Part shown: positions 2,966 to 27,418 of the stretch, one piece after another
Position numbering within the stretch: position 1 is the first letter of the stretch
Layout of the letters: every line of letters starts with the position of its first letter
NCBI GenBank assembly: GCA_038729465.1
Contig: JAVYRZ010000001.1
Location: 101,361 to 165,360 of the forward strand
Length of the DNA stretch: 64,000 bases
From: Thermoplasmata archaeon
Lineage (GTDB): Archaea > Thermoplasmatota > Thermoplasmata > Thermoplasmatales > ARK-15
Reading direction: 5' to 3'
Translations under genes and position numbers: made by a program
The notes under the pieces: model-generated
Databases searched by the model: none
What the model was told of the DNA's origin: nothing
Seen by the model: only the letters and a program-made list of their open reading frames with translations

Positions 2966-3065
2966 CCCGGCTTAGCTCAGAGGTAGAGCGGCGGACTGTA
3001 GTGTTGGCATAGAAATTTCCGCCGCAGAAATCCGCTTGTCCCCGGTTCGACTCCGGGAGCCGGGA
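2966..3065 (+). tRNA. tRNA-Tyr (anticodon GTA at 2998-3000) with a 28-nt intron at the canonical 37/38 position (about 3002-3029)
   Basis: Hand-folded cloverleaf: acceptor cccggct/agccggg, D arm gctc/gagc, anticodon stem gcgga/tccgc restored only after removing tgttggcatagaaatttccgccgcagaa, T arm cccgg-ttcgact-ccggg. Confidence 0.85.
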
Positions 3066-3163: not shown

Positions 3164-4573
3164 TTAAGAAGGTACTTCTATGACTAACTTTTCATTTGAA
3201 GCATCTTCCAGAGATTTTCTCATAGGCTCTTTCAAAAAGAATGATGTTATACCTCCAATAATCGATATCACGCCCAGCAACAGCAACAGTTCCTTTATGC
3301 CGATTACCAACAAGAGAGTAGGGAAAAGGAAAGTGCTTATTGCTGCACCCGTTTTTCCAGCTGCTGCAGATAAGCCATGTCCAGTGGTTCTGTATCTTAC
3401 TGGGAAAAGCTCTGCGGGCAATATGAATGTGGTTTGATTTGGTCCAAAATCTATGAAGAAAAATGTAAGTGAATACAGTAAAAATGCTATATCGACAGGT
3501 ATAATAAATCCCACAACCTTAACTCCTTTAGTTATCATCACAGAAGATACAATAATATATAAGATAGCCATCATAAAGAACCCCTGGATCTGAATGGTCT
3601 TTCTTCCCATCTTATCCAGAAGTGCTACAGCAGTAAAATAACCAAAGAATCCGACCATGAACGGCAATCCAGCAATCAATACTTTCATTGGTAAACTTGT
3701 TGAAGGAAGTATGCTGGAAACTATAGGACTTGAATATATACCCGTGCCATAAAAAGCCATATCTAGCATAAACCAGGTGCTCATAGTTATTACAAGTGTT
3801 TTCCAGTAAGATCTAATAAAGATTGAGAAAGTAGACACTTTTGTAGACGCTTTAATATTTTCAGCATTTTTTACGCCCACTACTTCTTTGGCTTTCTCAG
3901 TTATATCTTTGTTATTATTAACGAGCAAAGAATATCTCGGTGTTTCAGGCAGCTTTCTTCTTAAATATATTACCGTAAAAGCTGGAATTGCCCCAAAAGC
4001 CAGCATGAATCTCCAAGCAAAATCTGCAGGTAAAGCAATAACAGAAATAACCCCAACAGCCACTGCAACAACGGATCCTATGCCTTGGTTTGCAAAAACC
4101 AATCCTATAAGTTTACCACGATCTTTAGTGTTAGAATATTCGCTCATTATAGTTGCGCTAACTGGATAGTCTCCGCCAATCCCAATACCAACTAAAAATC
4201 TGGTAAGGAAGAGAAAAATAAAGCTTGGAGAAAAAGCGCTCAATACAGCGCCTATGGCCAATATAGTAGCTTCAATGCCATAAACCTTCTTTCTACCGAA
4301 AATATCAGCAATTCTTCCAAATAATAGCTGCCCGATTACAGCGGCAGCTATGGCAGAAGTTCCTATAAGGGCAGCCTGTATAGTATCTAGATGGAACGTT
4401 GTGGAAAATGGTCCAGTAAGAAGTATCAGAACTATTCCGATAATAAATAGGTCATATGCGTCAGTAAAAAAACCCATGCCTGATGTAAACCATATTTTAA
4501 GATGTCCCATGTTCAATCTTACAGAATCGACATCTTCAAATGGACTTTTTTCATTCATATTTTTAATCACCAA
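3164..4573 (-). CDS. MFS transporter of the Pho84/PHT1 (PHS) phosphate:H+ symporter type
   Basis: 469 aa, about 12 TM. N-terminal SGMGFFTDAYDLFIIG signature, GRIADIFGRKK loop, PETPRY motif. Divergent from a PhoU-domain gene. Confidence 0.75.
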   Translation of the reverse strand: MVIKNMNEKSPFEDVDSVRLNMGHLKIWFTSGMGFFTDAYDLFIIGIVLILLTGPFSTTFHLDTIQAALIGTSAIAAAVIGQLLFGRIADIFGRKKVYGIEATILAIGAVLSAFSPSFIFLFLTRFLVGIGIGGDYPVSATIMSEYSNTKDRGKLIGLVFANQGIGSVVAVAVGVISVIALPADFAWRFMLAFGAIPAFTVIYLRRKLPETPRYSLLVNNNKDITEKAKEVVGVKNAENIKASTKVSTFSIFIRSYWKTLVITMSTWFMLDMAFYGTGIYSSPIVSSILPSTSLPMKVLIAGLPFMVGFFGYFTAVALLDKMGRKTIQIQGFFMMAILYIIVSSVMITKGVKVVGFIIPVDIAFLLYSLTFFFIDFGPNQTTFILPAELFPVRYRTTGHGLSAAAGKTGAAISTFLFPTLLLVIGIKELLLLLGVISIIGGITSFFLKEPMRKSLEDASNEKLVIEVPS

Positions 4574-4677: not shown

Positions 4678-5685
4678 ATGTTTATGGAATACAGAAAACT
4701 CCAAAAAACTGGCGGAGCAACATATATTTTATCTCTTCCAAAAAAATGGATCACAACAAATAATCTTAAAGAAGGGGACATGTTAGGCATAGATATCATG
4801 TCTGGTGGAGAATTGCGAGTTCACACAAAAATTAATACTGTGGAAGAATTGCGAGAGATAACTTTATTTATAGAAGAAGGGCAGAATGAAAATCAGGTTA
4901 TACGAAAACTTATCGCTCTATATTTAGCTGGGTATAATATTGTAAAGATTGTTACACAAAAGGTAATTACTGAACAAACGAGGAAAGCGATAAAAAAGTT
5001 TTGTGCCTTAGTAATTGGTGTAGAAATAATAGAAGAAAAATCAAATACGATAGTGCTTCAGGACCTATCTAATACTGTTGAATTGCCCATGAACAAGATG
5101 CTGAACAGAATGTATATTATGTGTGAAAATATGGTTAATGACAGTAAGACATGCTTTGCGCAATATGATGAATCTTTTGCAAAGGAAATTATTGAAAGGG
5201 ATGTTCAGGTAGACAGGATTTACTGGCTTATTTCCAAACAATATAATTTGTCACTTCGAAGCCCAAGTTTTGCTGAAAAAATGAATATTAACTTAATAAC
5301 AGCACTTAACACAAGATCCGTGGCAAAATCTATTGAAAGAATAAGTGATCATGCAGAAAATATAGTATCTATAATTAACACAATACGACATTTTGACATT
5401 AAAAAAGAACAAATAAAAGAAATAATTTCTTTATTTGACAGAGCAATAGATATACTAAAAAAATCATACAGATCATATATTTTAAAAGATGGAAACATGG
5501 CAAATGAAGTCATAGAAAATGCAGAAATATTCTCTTTTGAAGCGCAGAAGAATATTAATGAGCTTGAGGAAAAAAGATACAAAAACTTTGTTGCACTTTC
5601 ATTTATTATAGAAAGCCTCATAAGAATATGTATGTACTCAGCAGATATCTGTGAAACGGCTATTAATGAAGATATAAGAGAATAA
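4678..5685 (+). CDS. Phosphate uptake regulator, AbrB/SpoVT-like N-terminal domain fused to PhoU repeats
   Basis: N-terminus LQKTGGATYILSLPKKWI..LKEGD (AbrB/SpoVT swapped-hairpin type), then PhoU-like helical repeats (RDVQVDRIYWLI, ERISDHAENI). Confidence 0.75.
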   Translation: MFMEYRKLQKTGGATYILSLPKKWITTNNLKEGDMLGIDIMSGGELRVHTKINTVEELREITLFIEEGQNENQVIRKLIALYLAGYNIVKIVTQKVITEQTRKAIKKFCALVIGVEIIEEKSNTIVLQDLSNTVELPMNKMLNRMYIMCENMVNDSKTCFAQYDESFAKEIIERDVQVDRIYWLISKQYNLSLRSPSFAEKMNINLITALNTRSVAKSIERISDHAENIVSIINTIRHFDIKKEQIKEIISLFDRAIDILKKSYRSYILKDGNMANEVIENAEIFSFEAQKNINELEEKRYKNFVALSFIIESLIRICMYSADICETAINEDIRE

Positions 5686-14798: not shown

Positions 14799-15260
14799 AT
14801 GATAGAAATACCTGCTATTTTGATATATAAGAAGAAAATAAAGGGTTTTGGAAGCGTAGAAGAGTTGATAAGCAGTACCAGTTCAAAAACGTTATATCTT
14901 TATGATTACGACTCTTTTTTAGGCAAAGAATTTAATTTTAAATATTATTCGGATTTAGGGGATATATATAAGCTTTGGATTGAGGCAAATCTAAAGAAGA
15001 TAAGGGATCTGATCGATATTTTAGTAGCAGGTGGTGAAATAGTGGTGCTGGATCCGAAATCAAAATTTTACAGAAAAAACGATGAGATCTTAAAATATAC
15101 AGATCAAGTGGCTATAAAATTAGATGACTCTGTAGATTTAAAAAAATATAAATTGTTTGGTGGCAAATATGTTATATATAATAAAGATCTTGAGGATAGA
15201 GAACTGGAGGTTACAAAGCCTGTATTTTTAAGAGGTGTGATATATGATAGAGAGGTTTAA
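14799..15260 (+). CDS. Hypothetical protein (153 aa), first gene of an overlapping four-ORF cassette
   Basis: ORF only. There is a weak by-eye resemblance to a HisA/HisF-like half barrel (IPAILIY..., LYLYDYDS, VAGGEIVVL), which is not sufficient for a call. Confidence 0.4.
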   Translation: MIEIPAILIYKKKIKGFGSVEELISSTSSKTLYLYDYDSFLGKEFNFKYYSDLGDIYKLWIEANLKKIRDLIDILVAGGEIVVLDPKSKFYRKNDEILKYTDQVAIKLDDSVDLKKYKLFGGKYVIYNKDLEDRELEVTKPVFLRGVIYDREV

Positions 15261-15732
15261 AGAAATAATATACATAGTTTCAAAGAAACTAGATAAAAAA
15301 GAGCTGACCGAGTCTGATTTTAAAAAAAGTCTGGTATACGATAGACAATGGCTTAGCCCAGACCATCTCAAAAAGTTTTTGGACATATGTTTAGAAATCA
15401 GATTATTGCAAAAAGATAACGATACTTATGTACCTACATTCTCTTTCAAGGATATACAGGTGACATTAGACACAAAGATAAGTGATAAAGATATTGATGA
15501 CTATAAACCACCAACAATCCAGAAAGATATTTTTATAGAAATACTGGAATATATAGAGCAAAAAGTAGCAATGCAGAGAAACGAAATTGTAAAAAATGTG
15601 AATAAAATCAAGGGAAAAATGAGATTTGTAACCATAGAGATTGCAGCACTAATTTATGCAAAAGATTTAAATTTGGATATATCTAAATTTTTAGACCCTG
15701 TGAAAGATAAGATTTTGAGTGGTATAAAATGA
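15244..15732 (+). CDS. Hypothetical protein (162 aa), second gene of the cassette
   Basis: ORF overlaps the upstream ORF by 17 nt and the downstream ORF by ATGA. No recognisable catalytic motif. Confidence 0.4.
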   Translation: MIERFKEIIYIVSKKLDKKELTESDFKKSLVYDRQWLSPDHLKKFLDICLEIRLLQKDNDTYVPTFSFKDIQVTLDTKISDKDIDDYKPPTIQKDIFIEILEYIEQKVAMQRNEIVKNVNKIKGKMRFVTIEIAALIYAKDLNLDISKFLDPVKDKILSGIK

Positions 15733-16007
15733 GAATTGTTCGAGCATCTGAAATTTCTGAGTTTGAATTCTGCTCTTTGAAATGGTACTATCGCGTTAAA
15801 GGCATAAAAGTATCAAAAGCGAAAGAAGCAGAAAGAACCTCAGCATTTGAGAGAGGAGAAGCGATGCATAAGAAGATGGGAGAAAGCATTGTTAAAACGC
15901 ATAGATTTGCATCAACATTAAAATATTTGATACTATTTTTAATAATAATATTATTGGTGACATTATGGATCTCTGGAATATTTACGTTTTTATTGCAATT
16001 ATTTTAA
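15729..16007 (+). CDS. Cas4-like nuclease, N-terminal segment (first Fe-S cysteine) ending in a hydrophobic helix
   Basis: ASEISEFEFCSLKWYY plus RGEAMHKKM match the Cas4/RecB-family N-terminus. The C-terminus LKYLILFLIIILLVTLWISGIFTFLLQLF is a predicted TM helix. Confidence 0.55.
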   Translation: MRIVRASEISEFEFCSLKWYYRVKGIKVSKAKEAERTSAFERGEAMHKKMGESIVKTHRFASTLKYLILFLIIILLVTLWISGIFTFLLQLF

Positions 16008-16492
16008 TTTTATTAATCTTCTCAATCTTAGCATATTTACGTTCTAAAAGATCATTAAAAAGAATTGGTTTAAGGGGAAATGAGATATATGCAGACATGG
16101 AAATAAGGGCGACAACATCTTTATATTCAGAGTCTCTAGGACTGGTAGGTAAGCCTGACAGAATTACCAGGCAAGGCAATGAAATCATAGTTTGGGAATT
16201 TAAATCAAGAGAAGCGCCGGCAATTCCTTTTGATAGCCATATAATGCAATTAGCTGCATATGCAATTTTAGCAGAAGAAAAATTTAAAACAAAGGTGAGC
16301 AAAGGGATTATCAGGTACAGTAACAAAACATTCGAGATCGCAATTGACAAAGCATTAAAAGAGAGAGTAACAGAACTGATTAAAGAGATACAGCGATACC
16401 CTCCGGAAGGGCAGGTATATAGAAATCATAATGACAAAGCTCGATGTTTAAAATGTGAATATAGAGAAATATGCAAATATTCTCTTATCTAA
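15965..16492 (+). CDS. Cas4-like PD-(D/E)XK nuclease core with C-terminal Cys cluster, preceded by a hydrophobic helix
   Basis: N-terminal TM IYVFIAIILILLIFSILAY. Nuclease motifs GKPDRI, EIIVWEFKS, QLAAYAIL. CLKCEYREIC cluster. Confidence 0.65.
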   Translation: MDLWNIYVFIAIILILLIFSILAYLRSKRSLKRIGLRGNEIYADMEIRATTSLYSESLGLVGKPDRITRQGNEIIVWEFKSREAPAIPFDSHIMQLAAYAILAEEKFKTKVSKGIIRYSNKTFEIAIDKALKERVTELIKEIQRYPPEGQVYRNHNDKARCLKCEYREICKYSLI

Positions 16493-18353
16493 CCTTTTTT
16501 ATAGATACGTAGGTGGATTGCAGTGCTGTTCCAGATCCATAGCGTTCTTGAACGAGGTCTTCAACCACAAAATTGATGTTTTTTCCATCATTCAGTTTAG
16601 GCCAAGCACCTTTATATGCTGCTACTACACCTTCAGGAATATCATCAGATATTATTGCGGTCATATTCAAAGCACCTGCAGTGCTTTTTACCTCTATCAG
16701 ATCTCCATCTTTAATTCCCAAATTTAAAGCATCGTTTCTGTTGACTCTTAAAGCAGTGTCAAACGAAGTTAAAATATTGAACTGAGAGTGCATGGACTTA
16801 ATATGAGTTAAGCTTAAAAATATAAATTTTCCATCTATGCTATTCTTCTTTAAATCAGTATCTATATAATTAAAATTTATCTTACCACTGGAATTTGGAA
16901 CCTTTATCTTTGCAAAGCCATGGTTATAAAATTCTTCTGTGTTTATATTTAACTGGCTCAGTACCTTTGAGATAATTTCAGATTCAGATTCTATAAGCGC
17001 AGGATCAGGCAATTTCATATGCTTTGCCAGTAAAGTGAATAGTTCATAGTTTGATTTGCACTCTCCTCTTGGCTCTACTATTTTCTGGTTTAAGTTGATA
17101 TAATTGTGAAAATATGAAACTACCAAATCATTTTGCTCAAAAAAAGTAGTGGCAGGCAAAACGATATCTGCAAAATCAGTAGAGTCTGTAAAAAAGAGAT
17201 CATGAACAACAATAAACAAACCGTTTTTGACTGCGTCTCTTAGAGCCTCTTGATTTGGTAAAGTAGCAAATGGATTACTATTGTATACAAACATGAACTT
17301 GATGTTTTTTTCTTTTAATTCTCTTCCGAGCTGAGACTGTTTAATCAGTACTCTATTATCATTTGAGCCTGCAAGATATTTATAATCCAGGTCATTTTTA
17401 AGACTGTATATAAGCCCATTCATGTTACCCAAAAGTGCTGGCAATATAGCAATTGCTTTAACGGTATCTCCACCATGCAAGCTTCTCTGAAATCCATATC
17501 CTATATGTATAATGCTTTTTTTTGTTAGATAAAGCTCTGCCAGAGCTATAATATCCTCCTTTTTAATGCCTGTGATTGAGGATGTATAATCTAAACTGTA
17601 CTTTTCAACCTTAGCTGCAAAATTATCAAAACCGATCGTTGATAGACTTATAAAATCTTTATCATATTTTTTATTTTTTATGATATAATTTGCCAATCCG
17701 AGAGCTAGCGTAATATCTGTTCCTATCTTGATTTTTATATGCCAATCTGCTTTTTTAGACGTTTCAGTAGCTAAAGGATCTATAGCTATCATATATGCCT
17801 TGCTCTTTTTAGCAAGATAATAGCCATGAACATTGGTCCAAACACTGTTAATTCCCCAATATATTATCAATTCAGAATTCAGGATCTCTAATGGATCTAC
17901 GCTATTGAAAGAGCCATACAGTTGTTCCAGTGCTCTAGCACCGGCTTCGTCACATGCGCTATGTAATAGTTTTGCAGTGCCAAGATAATTAAAAAAACGT
18001 TGCGGAAAATAATATGAAATCAAACCTTTATTGCCGGCATATTCTACATTTAATATGCTTTCAGGTCCATAAGTATCCATAGTTTCTTGAATTTTATCAG
18101 AAATGATTTCTAATGCTTTATTCCATTCCAATCTTTCAAATTTACCTTCTCCTTTTTTACCAACTGCTTTCATCGGATAAAGCACTCTTTTTTCTGAGTA
18201 ATATGCGTCCACAAAAAATTTAGATTTATAGCATAAGAATCCATTTGTTACCGGATGTTCTTTATTGCCATTAATATATAGTTTATCATCTAGATCTGTC
18301 CATATAGAACAAGAGTCATAGCAGTCTTTTGGGCATGCACTGAAAAACCTCAT
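16485..18353 (-). CDS. Molybdopterin (bis-MGD) oxidoreductase catalytic subunit, cytoplasmic type
   Basis: 622 aa with an N-terminal 4Fe-4S motif CPKDCYDSCS, a molybdopterin-binding core and a C-terminal MopB_CT-like barrel. No Tat signal. Confidence 0.75.
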   Translation of the reverse strand: MRFFSACPKDCYDSCSIWTDLDDKLYINGNKEHPVTNGFLCYKSKFFVDAYYSEKRVLYPMKAVGKKGEGKFERLEWNKALEIISDKIQETMDTYGPESILNVEYAGNKGLISYYFPQRFFNYLGTAKLLHSACDEAGARALEQLYGSFNSVDPLEILNSELIIYWGINSVWTNVHGYYLAKKSKAYMIAIDPLATETSKKADWHIKIKIGTDITLALGLANYIIKNKKYDKDFISLSTIGFDNFAAKVEKYSLDYTSSITGIKKEDIIALAELYLTKKSIIHIGYGFQRSLHGGDTVKAIAILPALLGNMNGLIYSLKNDLDYKYLAGSNDNRVLIKQSQLGRELKEKNIKFMFVYNSNPFATLPNQEALRDAVKNGLFIVVHDLFFTDSTDFADIVLPATTFFEQNDLVVSYFHNYINLNQKIVEPRGECKSNYELFTLLAKHMKLPDPALIESESEIISKVLSQLNINTEEFYNHGFAKIKVPNSSGKINFNYIDTDLKKNSIDGKFIFLSLTHIKSMHSQFNILTSFDTALRVNRNDALNLGIKDGDLIEVKSTAGALNMTAIISDDIPEGVVAAYKGAWPKLNDGKNINFVVEDLVQERYGSGTALQSTYVSIKKVR

Positions 18354-25996: not shown

Positions 25997-26542
25997 ATGT
26001 TTACTATTGTTCCGTCTAAAGTTTTTTTTACAAAAGGAATTGGAAGACATAAAAGTAAATTGGGCTCTTTTGAAAGAGCCCTAAGAGATGCAGAAATTGC
26101 ACAGTTTAACCTGGTAGAAGTCAGTTCGATATTTCCACCTAATGCAGAGATAATATCTAAAGAGGAAGGATTGTCAGTCTTAAAGTCTGGACAAATCCTG
26201 TTTTTAGTACTTGCACAAAATTCTTCTGATGAACTTAATAGATTAATATCTGCTGCTGTAGGATTGGCGATTCCTAAAGATAGAAAAATGTACGGTTATT
26301 TAAGTGAGCATCATAGTTTTGGAGAAACTGAACAGACAGCAGGAGAGTTTGCTGAAGATCTAGCAGCAGAGATGCTGGCATCTACACTTGGAATAGAATC
26401 ACATCTGGTATGGGATGAAACTAAAGGTATTTACAAGCTTGATGATAGAATATTACTAACACAACATACTGTAAGTACTACAACTGTAGAGAAGCCATCA
26501 GAATGGACCACTACATTGGCCGCCGCAGTACTCATTCCTTAA
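25997..26542 (+). CDS. pdaD: Pyruvoyl-dependent arginine decarboxylase
   Basis: 181 aa, with a PvlArgDC-family pattern including the [11 protein letters not shown] cleavage region. Confidence 0.8.
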
Positions 26543-27418
26543 ATCTTTAGCAGTGTTGTGAGCTAATTTTATTGGCTCTGGTGAGCCTTTCTTTGTCAGA
26601 TTTTTTATTATTTTGTATGCACTTTCTATAGATATTTTATGGCCGGGGGAAATATAATTTTTTTGTAGGATCTTCCCAACTAAGGCATCATCTAAATATA
26701 TCCTGTTATCTAAAACATTTCCAGTTAAAAGAGATTTTGCAACACCTATTGTAGTAATATCTAGTTTTACCCCAACATAGGATGCTATTCCGAATCTGGA
26801 GGGATGCAGTATTCCATTTCCATCAATAATTAATATCCCATCCTTATCAGCATATTTTAATATCAAATCTCCTTCCCGATACGAAAAATAGGTTGGGATA
26901 TAAGGGAAAGAAACAGTGTCGATATACGTTTTTGTGGATACAATATCCCCGGTTCTTAAATTAAATTTAACAAAGGCTATGAATGATAAATTCCTAAAAT
27001 ATGAAACATCCACCCCAGTAACAAAATATGAATCAATAGAATCTTGCAAAATCACTTTTTTAGATAATTCAATTTGTTCTTTCTTTAACTTTTGAAGTGG
27101 ATAATCGGATTTAAAATCTGTAAAAAGTATGTTTTTAAAGTCTATAATTCTACCTCTGTCTACAGTTACTCCTTCTCTCTTCAAAAGATTAATTTTCTCT
27201 GAGATGCCGTTTGGATGTGTGAACCCACCTAGAGTCCCATCTGAACTAACAACCCTATGGCAAGGAATAATAACTGGCTCGGGATTCTGAGATAACATTA
27301 CTCCTACCGCACGTGCAGCAATTGGGTCACCTAATGCATTTGCTAGCGATCCATAAGTTGATACCCTCCCAGGCGGGATCTGTTTGACGAGAGCATAGAA
27401 AATTGAAAATAAATCCAT
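26498..27418 (-). CDS. Fusion protein: O6-alkylguanine-DNA alkyltransferase domain (N-terminal) + endonuclease V domain (C-terminal)
   Basis: N-terminal half has IPCHRVV active site and GRVSTYG. C-terminal half has EndoV-like [29 protein letters not shown] and GVAKS. Confidence 0.8.

Follow-up and report, generated by a model that had tools for sequence, protein, structure and literature searches.

Does the locus at positions 14799-16492 of the genomic stretch from a Thermoplasmata archaeon analyzed here (64,000 nucleotides of contig JAVYRZ010000001.1, hereinafter the window) contain a gene for a Cas4-like nuclease that was broken by error, or does it encode an enzyme that is made in two parts? 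Nucleases of the Cas4 family are known as soluble enzymes that function in CRISPR (clustered regularly interspaced short palindromic repeats) adaptation and DNA repair. The locus shows the signatures of this family, namely a C-terminal piece that scores above the curated cut-off of a hidden Markov model (HMM), the D/ExK/QxxxY elements, four cysteines and the G-x3-H motif, but instead of the expected single soluble chain of approximately 160-220 amino acids (aa), these are distributed between two open reading frames (ORFs) that lie in different frames and contain one membrane helix each. An earlier interpretation of this DNA, made without database searches (the sequence-only reading), suggested a membrane-tethered, possibly two-piece Cas4-like nuclease or, alternatively, a single gene split by a frameshift or sequencing error. 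The analysis described here favors the former suggestion given the conserved split, the conserved helices and the purifying selection on both pieces: the genes 15729-16007 and 15965-16492 quite probably encode two subunits of one membrane-anchored Cas4-family (RecB-like PD-(D/E)XK, 4Fe-4S) nuclease, denoted below the N piece and the C piece.

The features of these two genes are the following.

15729-16007, plus strand: predicted N subunit, 92 aa, with the Cas4 N-terminal helix (Cys15, Trp19), G43-x3-H47 and a C-terminal membrane helix.
15771-15773, plus strand: codon of Cys15, the predicted first 4Fe-4S ligand; an invariant column, aligned to the region of the first cluster Cys in Cas4 8d3l and 4r5q.
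15867-15869, plus strand: codon of His47 (G-x3-H), a predicted catalytic metal ligand; an invariant column, aligned to the GxxlH motif of solved Cas4 structures.
15924-15995, plus strand: membrane helix of the N subunit, approximately residues 66-89 (Kyte-Doolittle), followed by about 3 residues.
15956-15960, plus strand: GGTGA, a Shine-Dalgarno-like sequence 4 nucleotides (nt) 5' of the C-piece ATG and within the N-piece ORF; a putative ribosome-binding site.
15965-16492, plus strand: predicted C subunit, 175 aa, with an N-terminal membrane helix followed by a RecB-like nuclease core and three cluster cysteines.
15965-16007, plus strand: 43-nt stretch that encodes the end of the N subunit in one frame and the beginning of the C subunit in another.
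15980-16036, plus strand: membrane helix of the C subunit, approximately residues 6-24 (Kyte-Doolittle), followed by the K/R-rich RSKRSLKR.
16115-16477, plus strand: nuclease core, residues 51-171, with D65 (GKPD), E78-F-K80, Q95-x3-Y99, C161, C164 and C170.

Together with two upstream ORFs, these genes make up four plus-strand ORFs chained by overlaps of 17 nt, 4 nt (ATGA) and 43 nt. The ORFs, all three overlaps and the motifs listed in the sequence-only reading (EFCSLKWYY and GEAMH in the N piece; GKPDRI, VWEFKS, QLAAYAIL and CLKCEYREIC in the C piece) were found in the ORF calls and translations. The window is AT-rich (34% GC), the best genome match of the C piece is a Thermoplasmatota metagenome-assembled genome with 91% identity, and the sequencing runs in which the locus was detected come from hot-spring samples.

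The assignment to Cas4 rests on both pieces. The C piece scores 79.0 bits against TIGR00372 (curated cut-off 65; model positions 59-179) and 48.3 bits against PF01930 (curated cut-off 22.7). The N piece matches TIGR00372 weakly, at 14.7 bits, which is under the cut-off (E-value 0.021; model positions 3-57), and matches a Cas4 model of PADLOC with an E-value of 2.4e-5, so that, according to the profile alignments, the two ORFs jointly span one complete Cas4. In an alignment of 19 diverse N pieces, S7, C15, W19, G43 and H47 are invariant, and the two best PDB matches of the N-piece profile are the N-termini of the Cas4 proteins 8d3l_I and 4r5q_A, with the Cys and the GxxlH motif aligned. Similarly, D65, E78, K80, Q95, Y99, C161, C164 and C170 are invariant among 8 and among 32 aligned C pieces, and the C-piece profile matches Cas4 7mi4 and 8d3l. 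Accordingly, all four cysteines of the Cas4 cluster are present but are carried by two polypeptides, with C15 in the N piece and the CX2CX5C motif (C161/C164/C170) in the C piece, and the catalytic metal residues are divided in the same manner, with His47 on the N piece and D65/E78 on the C piece. In SSO0001, the metal ligands are His62, Asp99 and Glu113 (PMC12501428, PMC13621843). We infer that His47 is equivalent to His62 of SSO0001, given the alignment and the Cys-to-His spacing, which is 32 residues here and 31 residues in SSO0001. Because the conserved Cas4 residues are divided over the two pieces, the predicted 4Fe-4S site and the metal site are each probably shared by the two polypeptides, and given that the ligands of both sites fall on both pieces, an obligate N-C heterodimer appears likely.

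The gene split is genuine and conserved. In contigs from independent sequencing runs, no insertion or deletion was detected over positions 15600-16500: the junction is covered at a depth of 115 in a near-identical assembly and at a depth of 77 in a diverged strain, which shows 71 substitutions and 0 gaps, and a hot-spring metatranscriptome yielded contigs over both pieces. The comparison of orthologues, proposed in the sequence-only reading, showed that both the split form and the hydrophobic segments are kept. Five orthologous clusters (78-91% identity) all have C pieces of 175 aa and N pieces of 89-92 aa and share the 43-nt overlap and the neighbor genes with the window locus, and more distant relatives (38% identity) have 92-aa and 174-aa genes with an ATGA overlap and a helix at the break in each. 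Across close orthologues and distant relatives, the N piece consists of 74-93 aa and the C piece of approximately 175 aa. Pairwise ratios of nonsynonymous to synonymous substitution rates (dN/dS) range from 0.12 to 0.17 in the N piece and from 0.04 to 0.14 in the C piece, which indicates purifying selection on both. The N-terminal ORF, on whose conservation the two-piece proposal hinged, is thus conserved by both measures, namely the invariant residues and the dN/dS values. Furthermore, the substitutions inside the 43-nt overlap are mostly synonymous in the N frame, and therefore the N tail is read through to its own stop codon.

Both hydrophobic segments are strong candidates for membrane helices. 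The best 19-residue Kyte-Doolittle windows score 2.99 in the N piece (from residue 67) and 2.98 in the C piece (from residue 6), compared to the usual threshold of 1.6, and the helix is kept in all N pieces; the examination of membrane segments advised in the sequence-only reading thus gave values of about 3.0 for both segments, with helices conserved from Thermoplasmatota to Chloroflexota and a Woesearchaeote. The flanking charges are strongly asymmetric. For 19 N pieces, the K+R count is 2.68 over the 15 residues that precede the helix and 0.32 beyond it, and for 117 C pieces it is 0.13 ahead of the helix and 3.69 over the 15 residues that follow; in each piece, only about 3 residues extend beyond the helix on the far side. 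Under the positive-inside rule, this asymmetry implies that both soluble parts are located on the cytoplasmic side and that the two helices are antiparallel, similar to the hairpin of fused homologues. The mostly even helix numbers of the fused homologues (see below) likewise place the N and C soluble parts on one side of the membrane. The same-side topology with a single shared four-cysteine site that had been envisaged in the sequence-only reading accordingly agrees with the charge asymmetry, the even helix counts and the invariant cysteines. The AlphaFold2 (AF2) model of the fused homologue from Methermicoccus shengliensis has a predicted local distance difference test score (pLDDT) of 86 and a predicted template modeling score of 0.81, and contains a long helical hairpin (39-84/88-119) between the N-terminal helices and the core. 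Its best Foldseek match in the PDB is Cas4 8d3l_I (E-value 6e-8, template modeling score 0.68), and the other structural matches include Dna2, Cas4-Cas1 7mi4, SSO0001, AdnAB, ACE1 and MGME1.

Taken at face value, these features suggest the following organization of the enzyme. The N and C genes would be translated separately, given that the C start has its own GGTGA and that most relatives show coupling of the ATGA type. The N piece would insert as a tail-anchored protein and the C piece with its N-terminus outside, the two helices would pair as an antiparallel hairpin with both soluble parts on the cytoplasmic face, and the N and C parts would assemble into one Cas4 fold. With Cys15 contributed by the N subunit and Cys161/164/170 by the C subunit, one 4Fe-4S cluster would then span the subunit interface in the manner of the AddB 'iron staple', and His47 (N subunit) and D65/E78 (C subunit) would jointly bind the catalytic metal. 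By homology, the complex may be a Mn/Mg-dependent nuclease active on single-stranded DNA (ssDNA) or DNA ends.

The distribution of this architecture was explored in a locus scan that included one genome per species and used a query alignment biased to loci with the SHIMQ and VGKPD patterns. Altogether 48 loci were found, 2 in Thermoplasmatota, 1 in a Woesearchaeote and 45 of the Chloroflexota type (one with a Klebsiella label). The N-piece HMM placed an N piece directly upstream of the C piece in 41 of these loci, which come from Thermoplasmatota, Woesearchaeota and Chloroflexota. The junctions in other lineages differ from that in the window, with an 8-nt gap or a 55-nt overlap; over the loci compared, the overlaps range from 1 to 55 nt, and gaps of 8, 9 and 48 nt also occur. 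In the Anaerolineae locus L052, the N piece adjoins a translin-like gene, so that the two halves can be unlinked, and the related loci L044, L049, L051 and L056 contain no N piece within 4 kb.

A search of 1.84 billion representative proteins with the C-piece profile retrieved 2796 representative clusters with E-values of at most 1e-3, among which the weaker matches probably include ordinary Cas4 proteins, and 119 clusters with E-values of at most 1e-30. Among the best 150 clusters, approximately 118-133, depending on the counting, represent the split form, with a C piece of about 170-190 aa that has one N-terminal helix and no N-terminal Cys motif, and in about 17 the N part and the core belong to one chain, with 2, 4 or approximately 8 hydrophobic helices between them; the helices were counted crudely by hydropathy, and some of the numbers obtained were odd. 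The fused homologues always keep the N part. The M. shengliensis protein WP_052353351 (266 aa, annotated as Cas4) is a fused two-helix member, and the forms with 4 and approximately 8 helices come from metagenomic sequences. On trees of the soluble core, the split and fused states are clustered: the maximum likelihood tree implies at least 6 changes between the two states, of which well-supported branches force only one. The clade of the window locus groups with two other split sequences and is nearer to the fused archaeal forms than to the main Chloroflexota group, with weak support for the deep branches.

The two genes upstream of the N piece in the window, and the genes found in the same position in Chloroflexota, are as follows.

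14799-15260, plus strand: 153-aa ORF; 17-nt overlap with the next gene; lineage-specific, with no family match.
15244-15732, plus strand: stand-alone DUF2240 protein, 162 aa; PF09999 with an E-value of 1.8e-28 over model positions 7-143/144; ATGA overlap with the N-piece gene.
L012-L048 (for example, L012:1-2235 and L003:1881-3897), same strand: run of ssb, DUF3467 and translin-like genes, followed by the N and C pieces.

The 64-kb window contains neither an Rfam CRISPR repeat nor a repeat array, whether spaced or tandem, and a Pfam scan of approximately 30 kb around the locus revealed no cas gene, in agreement with the observation in the sequence-only reading that neither cas genes nor repeats are nearby. 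The neighbors within about 15 kb include genes for PheRS, QueC/QueD, a ROK kinase, a molybdopterin oxidoreductase, mevalonate kinase and gyrase A/B, and the relatives with 78-91% identity share this syntenic housekeeping neighborhood. The locus is a solo-Cas4 (PMC5704561), a Cas4-family gene located neither in a CRISPR-cas locus nor in a mobile element, in a housekeeping chromosomal context, and not a component of CRISPR adaptation.

The DUF2240 domain is the N-terminal helical bundle of archaeal Rpa1 (PMC10122647). In three relatives that were compared (the window, L001 and L010), the DUF2240 protein is nearly unchanged (approximately 6-8 differences in 162 residues), and the nuclease genes differ more (9-10% in the C piece and approximately 8% in the N piece). 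For the 153-aa ORF, only close orthologues with 81-97% identity were found, profile scans, including PADLOC, gave no family match, and the AF2 model is unusable (pLDDT 39). The chain of overlapping ORFs described in the sequence-only reading is real; as a conserved four-gene module, the cassette had to be rejected, given that only close Thermoplasmatota relatives have the 153-aa ORF and the DUF2240 gene beside the nuclease and that unrelated neighbors are found in other lineages, which also answers the question, raised in that reading, of whether the upstream ORFs co-occur with the nuclease elsewhere. In approximately two dozen Chloroflexota loci, mostly from Anaerolineae, the nuclease genes follow on the same strand a run consisting of ssb (PF00436), a DUF3467 gene (106 aa) and a translin-like gene (approximately 215 aa; PF01997, E-value 1e-5). 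A relationship between either upstream product of the window (the 153-aa protein or the DUF2240 protein) and the SSB, DUF3467 and translin-like proteins of Chloroflexota was rejected (hhalign probabilities 0.1-0.3).

The fused archaeal forms are found in varied housekeeping contexts. In the region L058:5718-8514, the gene for the fused M. shengliensis homologue is followed, at a distance of about 1 kb, by genes for an XPB helicase and a DUF790 protein; DUF790 is presumably the Bax1 nuclease family, in which case these two genes would be a nucleotide-excision-repair pair. Loci of the Chloroflexia type, including Roseiflexaceae and Herpetosiphonaceae, have a gene for an M50/RseP-like membrane metalloprotease (367-393 aa, with a PDZ domain) immediately 5' of the split nuclease (L028, L029, L030, L033, L041, L045 and L055, in each of which it precedes the N piece). 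The presence of DUF2240 in the window and of ssb and the translin-like gene in Chloroflexota points weakly to the processing of SSB/RPA-bound ssDNA at the membrane. The reading that we prefer is that of a membrane-tethered nuclease that would act on ssDNA or DNA ends in DNA maintenance.

Several alternatives to the two-subunit enzyme have to be considered. The junction is AT-rich and contains T runs, which is where a sequencing or assembly frameshift, or a recent pseudogenizing indel, could be expected to cut a single gene, the alternative already raised in the sequence-only reading. The absence of indels in the independent assemblies at 115x and 77x, the architecture shared by at least five diverged orthologues and by homologues from distant phyla, and the strong purifying selection on the N and C pieces contradict this explanation and render it so improbable that it can practically be set aside. 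Programmed -1 frameshifting in the overlap, which would fuse the ORFs into one two-helix protein, either as the only product or beside the separate pieces, might seem attractive given that in 39 of 42 loci the step from the N ORF to the C ORF is a -1 shift, that fused two-helix homologues exist, and that the overlap is T-rich. The -1 relation, however, follows from the common ATGA overlap by itself, and the final 30 N-ORF codons of 18 loci contain no canonical X_XXY_YYZ slippery heptamer. Moreover, the form of the junction differs from locus to locus, three loci have gaps between the two ORFs, two of these with the C ORF in frame 0 behind the stop codon, the N-frame tail is conserved up to its own stop codon, and the C ORF starts with its own ATG preceded by GGTGA, so we consider recoding of this kind very unlikely. 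Another possibility is that the C piece is a functional, single-pass membrane-anchored Cas4 core on its own, in which case the N piece would be either a remnant that can be dispensed with or a small membrane protein unrelated to the nuclease. This explanation can draw on the 7 of the 48 loci that lack an N piece within 4 kb, and on a Methanosarcina mazei solo-Cas4 mutant without the Fe-S cluster that stayed active, according to a statement in PMC13621843 that cites this result. It is difficult to reconcile with the purifying selection on the N piece, the invariance of Cys15, Trp19 and G-x3-H across phyla, the retention of the three partner cysteines in the C piece without exception, and the retention of the N part in all fused forms; given that the N piece of L052 is unlinked, the 'missing' N pieces may also be located elsewhere in the respective genomes. 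Overall, the self-sufficient C piece appears improbable.

With regard to function, the principal competitor of housekeeping DNA maintenance is an anti-phage or anti-plasmid defense nuclease that would attack DNA entering through the membrane. Cas4-family nucleases recur in defense systems, as exemplified by DruK and by the Cas4-like matches associated with Argonaute, and a membrane location suits the interception of incoming DNA. The surroundings argue otherwise: the locus and its relatives reside in a syntenic housekeeping context (PheRS, QueC/D, ROK, mevalonate kinase, gyrase) with no known defense genes nearby, PADLOC assigns only generic Cas4/DruK-type nuclease matches to the two pieces and nothing to the upstream ORFs, and the Chloroflexota synteny is found in a stable chromosomal setting that is typical of solo-Cas4 (PMC5704561) and unlike defense islands. 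A defense role therefore appears unlikely, although not negligibly so. Returning to the two-subunit nuclease and its proposed role, some of the observations weigh against this interpretation. The adjacency of the two pieces is not universal, as shown by the 7 loci mentioned above, some of whose C pieces might act without an N piece, and by L052, in which the N piece (1082-1477) is separated from the C piece (3944-4459) by approximately 2.5 kb. The evidence on the junction comes from assembled contigs, so that rare indel variants or RNA-level recoding may occur; the evidence for the Cas4 fold comes from the model of a fused homologue and not from the two proteins of the window; and the association, cluster binding and DNA cutting by the two polypeptides are predictions. 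Finally, the link to SSB/RPA is one of synteny, derived mostly from related Anaerolineae and one archaeal clade, in which the upstream genes are unrelated to each other.

Compared to the Cas4 proteins of CRISPR systems (PF01930/TIGR00372/COG1468; SSO0001 4IC1, Pcal_0546 4R5Q, the type I-C Cas4 8D3L, and Cas4-Cas1 7MI4), the locus encodes the identical set of conserved elements, that is, the N-terminal Cys helix, G-x3-H, D...ExK, QxxxY and the C-terminal CX2CX5C; the C piece exceeds the curated cut-offs and the model of the fused homologue superposes on 8D3L. The differences are that membrane helices interrupt the chain, and in this locus cut it, after the G-x3-H helix and before the first strand of the core, that there are two polypeptides, and that no cas1, cas2 or CRISPR array is found beside the locus in the window. 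In its location outside CRISPR-cas loci, its conserved chromosomal context and its presence in archaea and Chloroflexota, the locus resembles the solo-Cas4 genes (PMC5704561), for which a clade in Chloroflexota was noted by Hudaiberdiev et al. 2017 (PMC5704561). The characterized solo-Cas4 proteins, unlike the products of this locus, are soluble single chains; in particular, M. mazei Solo-Cas4 is a 30.7-kDa soluble oligomer (PMC12501428). Neither membrane helices nor a two-gene form are mentioned in the text of PMC5704561 or PMC12501428. The 'iron-staple' domains of AddB, Dna2 and AdnAB show the same arrangement of one Cys before and three after a RecB-like core, with the 4Fe-4S cluster pinning the domain, but are parts of large soluble helicase-nucleases, whereas in this locus the staple would join two small membrane-anchored subunits. 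The closest similarity is to the fused membrane-embedded Cas4-like proteins, which belong to the same family (profile E-values of 1e-29 to 1e-34) and contain the insert at the same position; they differ in consisting of one chain whose helix number is even, whereas the form in the window is cut in what would be the extracytoplasmic loop of the hairpin.

Three other features of the window deserve mention. At 26498-27418 (minus strand), a 306-aa ORF fuses the DNA-binding domain of 6-O-methylguanine-DNA methyltransferase (PF01035) with endonuclease V (PF04493), two DNA-repair activities. At 4678-5685 (plus strand), a 335-aa protein combines an N-terminal MazE/AbrB-type domain (PF04014) with a PhoU domain. 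At 2966-3065 (plus strand), a tRNA match extends over 100 nt compared to the full 71-position model, which suggests an intron-containing tRNA gene.

No paper on a membrane-inserted or split (two-gene) Cas4 was found in a literature search that covered few subscription journals. The profile and locus searches indicate that there is a large family of predicted membrane-embedded Cas4-like enzymes outside CRISPR loci, in which the split form dominates among the close relatives of the window locus. In such enzymes, a single catalytic domain would be threaded through the membrane and, in most of these close relatives, cut into two genes, such that both subunits would contribute to the Fe-S site as well as to the site of the catalytic metal. 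The locus thereby offers a natural test of the iron-staple idea, with a cluster that would hold two polypeptides together. There is also a practical aspect: the 175-aa piece is labeled 'CRISPR-associated Cas4' in both JGI and NCBI, as is one 91-aa orthologue of the N piece in JGI, and such labels can mislead surveys of CRISPR in genomes that possibly lack it.

These observations raise the question of which task a DNA nuclease of Thermoplasmatota, Chloroflexota and other lineages performs on the inner membrane face. A far-reaching answer, which we put forward as a tentative and rather doubtful possibility, is that the family is an old, unrecognized device of DNA maintenance, whose split members would be obligate heterodimers, built by an inter-subunit iron staple and a two-helix hairpin and recruited by SSB/RPA. 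If so, the nuclease could be turned on or off at the membrane through loading or loss of the cluster, the partners would be proteins of the SSB/RPA type (SSB and the translin-like protein in Chloroflexota, the DUF2240 protein here), and the process would be ssDNA or DNA-end processing at the membrane, for example where DNA is imported or exported or where the chromosome is attached to the membrane. Given the size of the family, any function that is found would apply widely.

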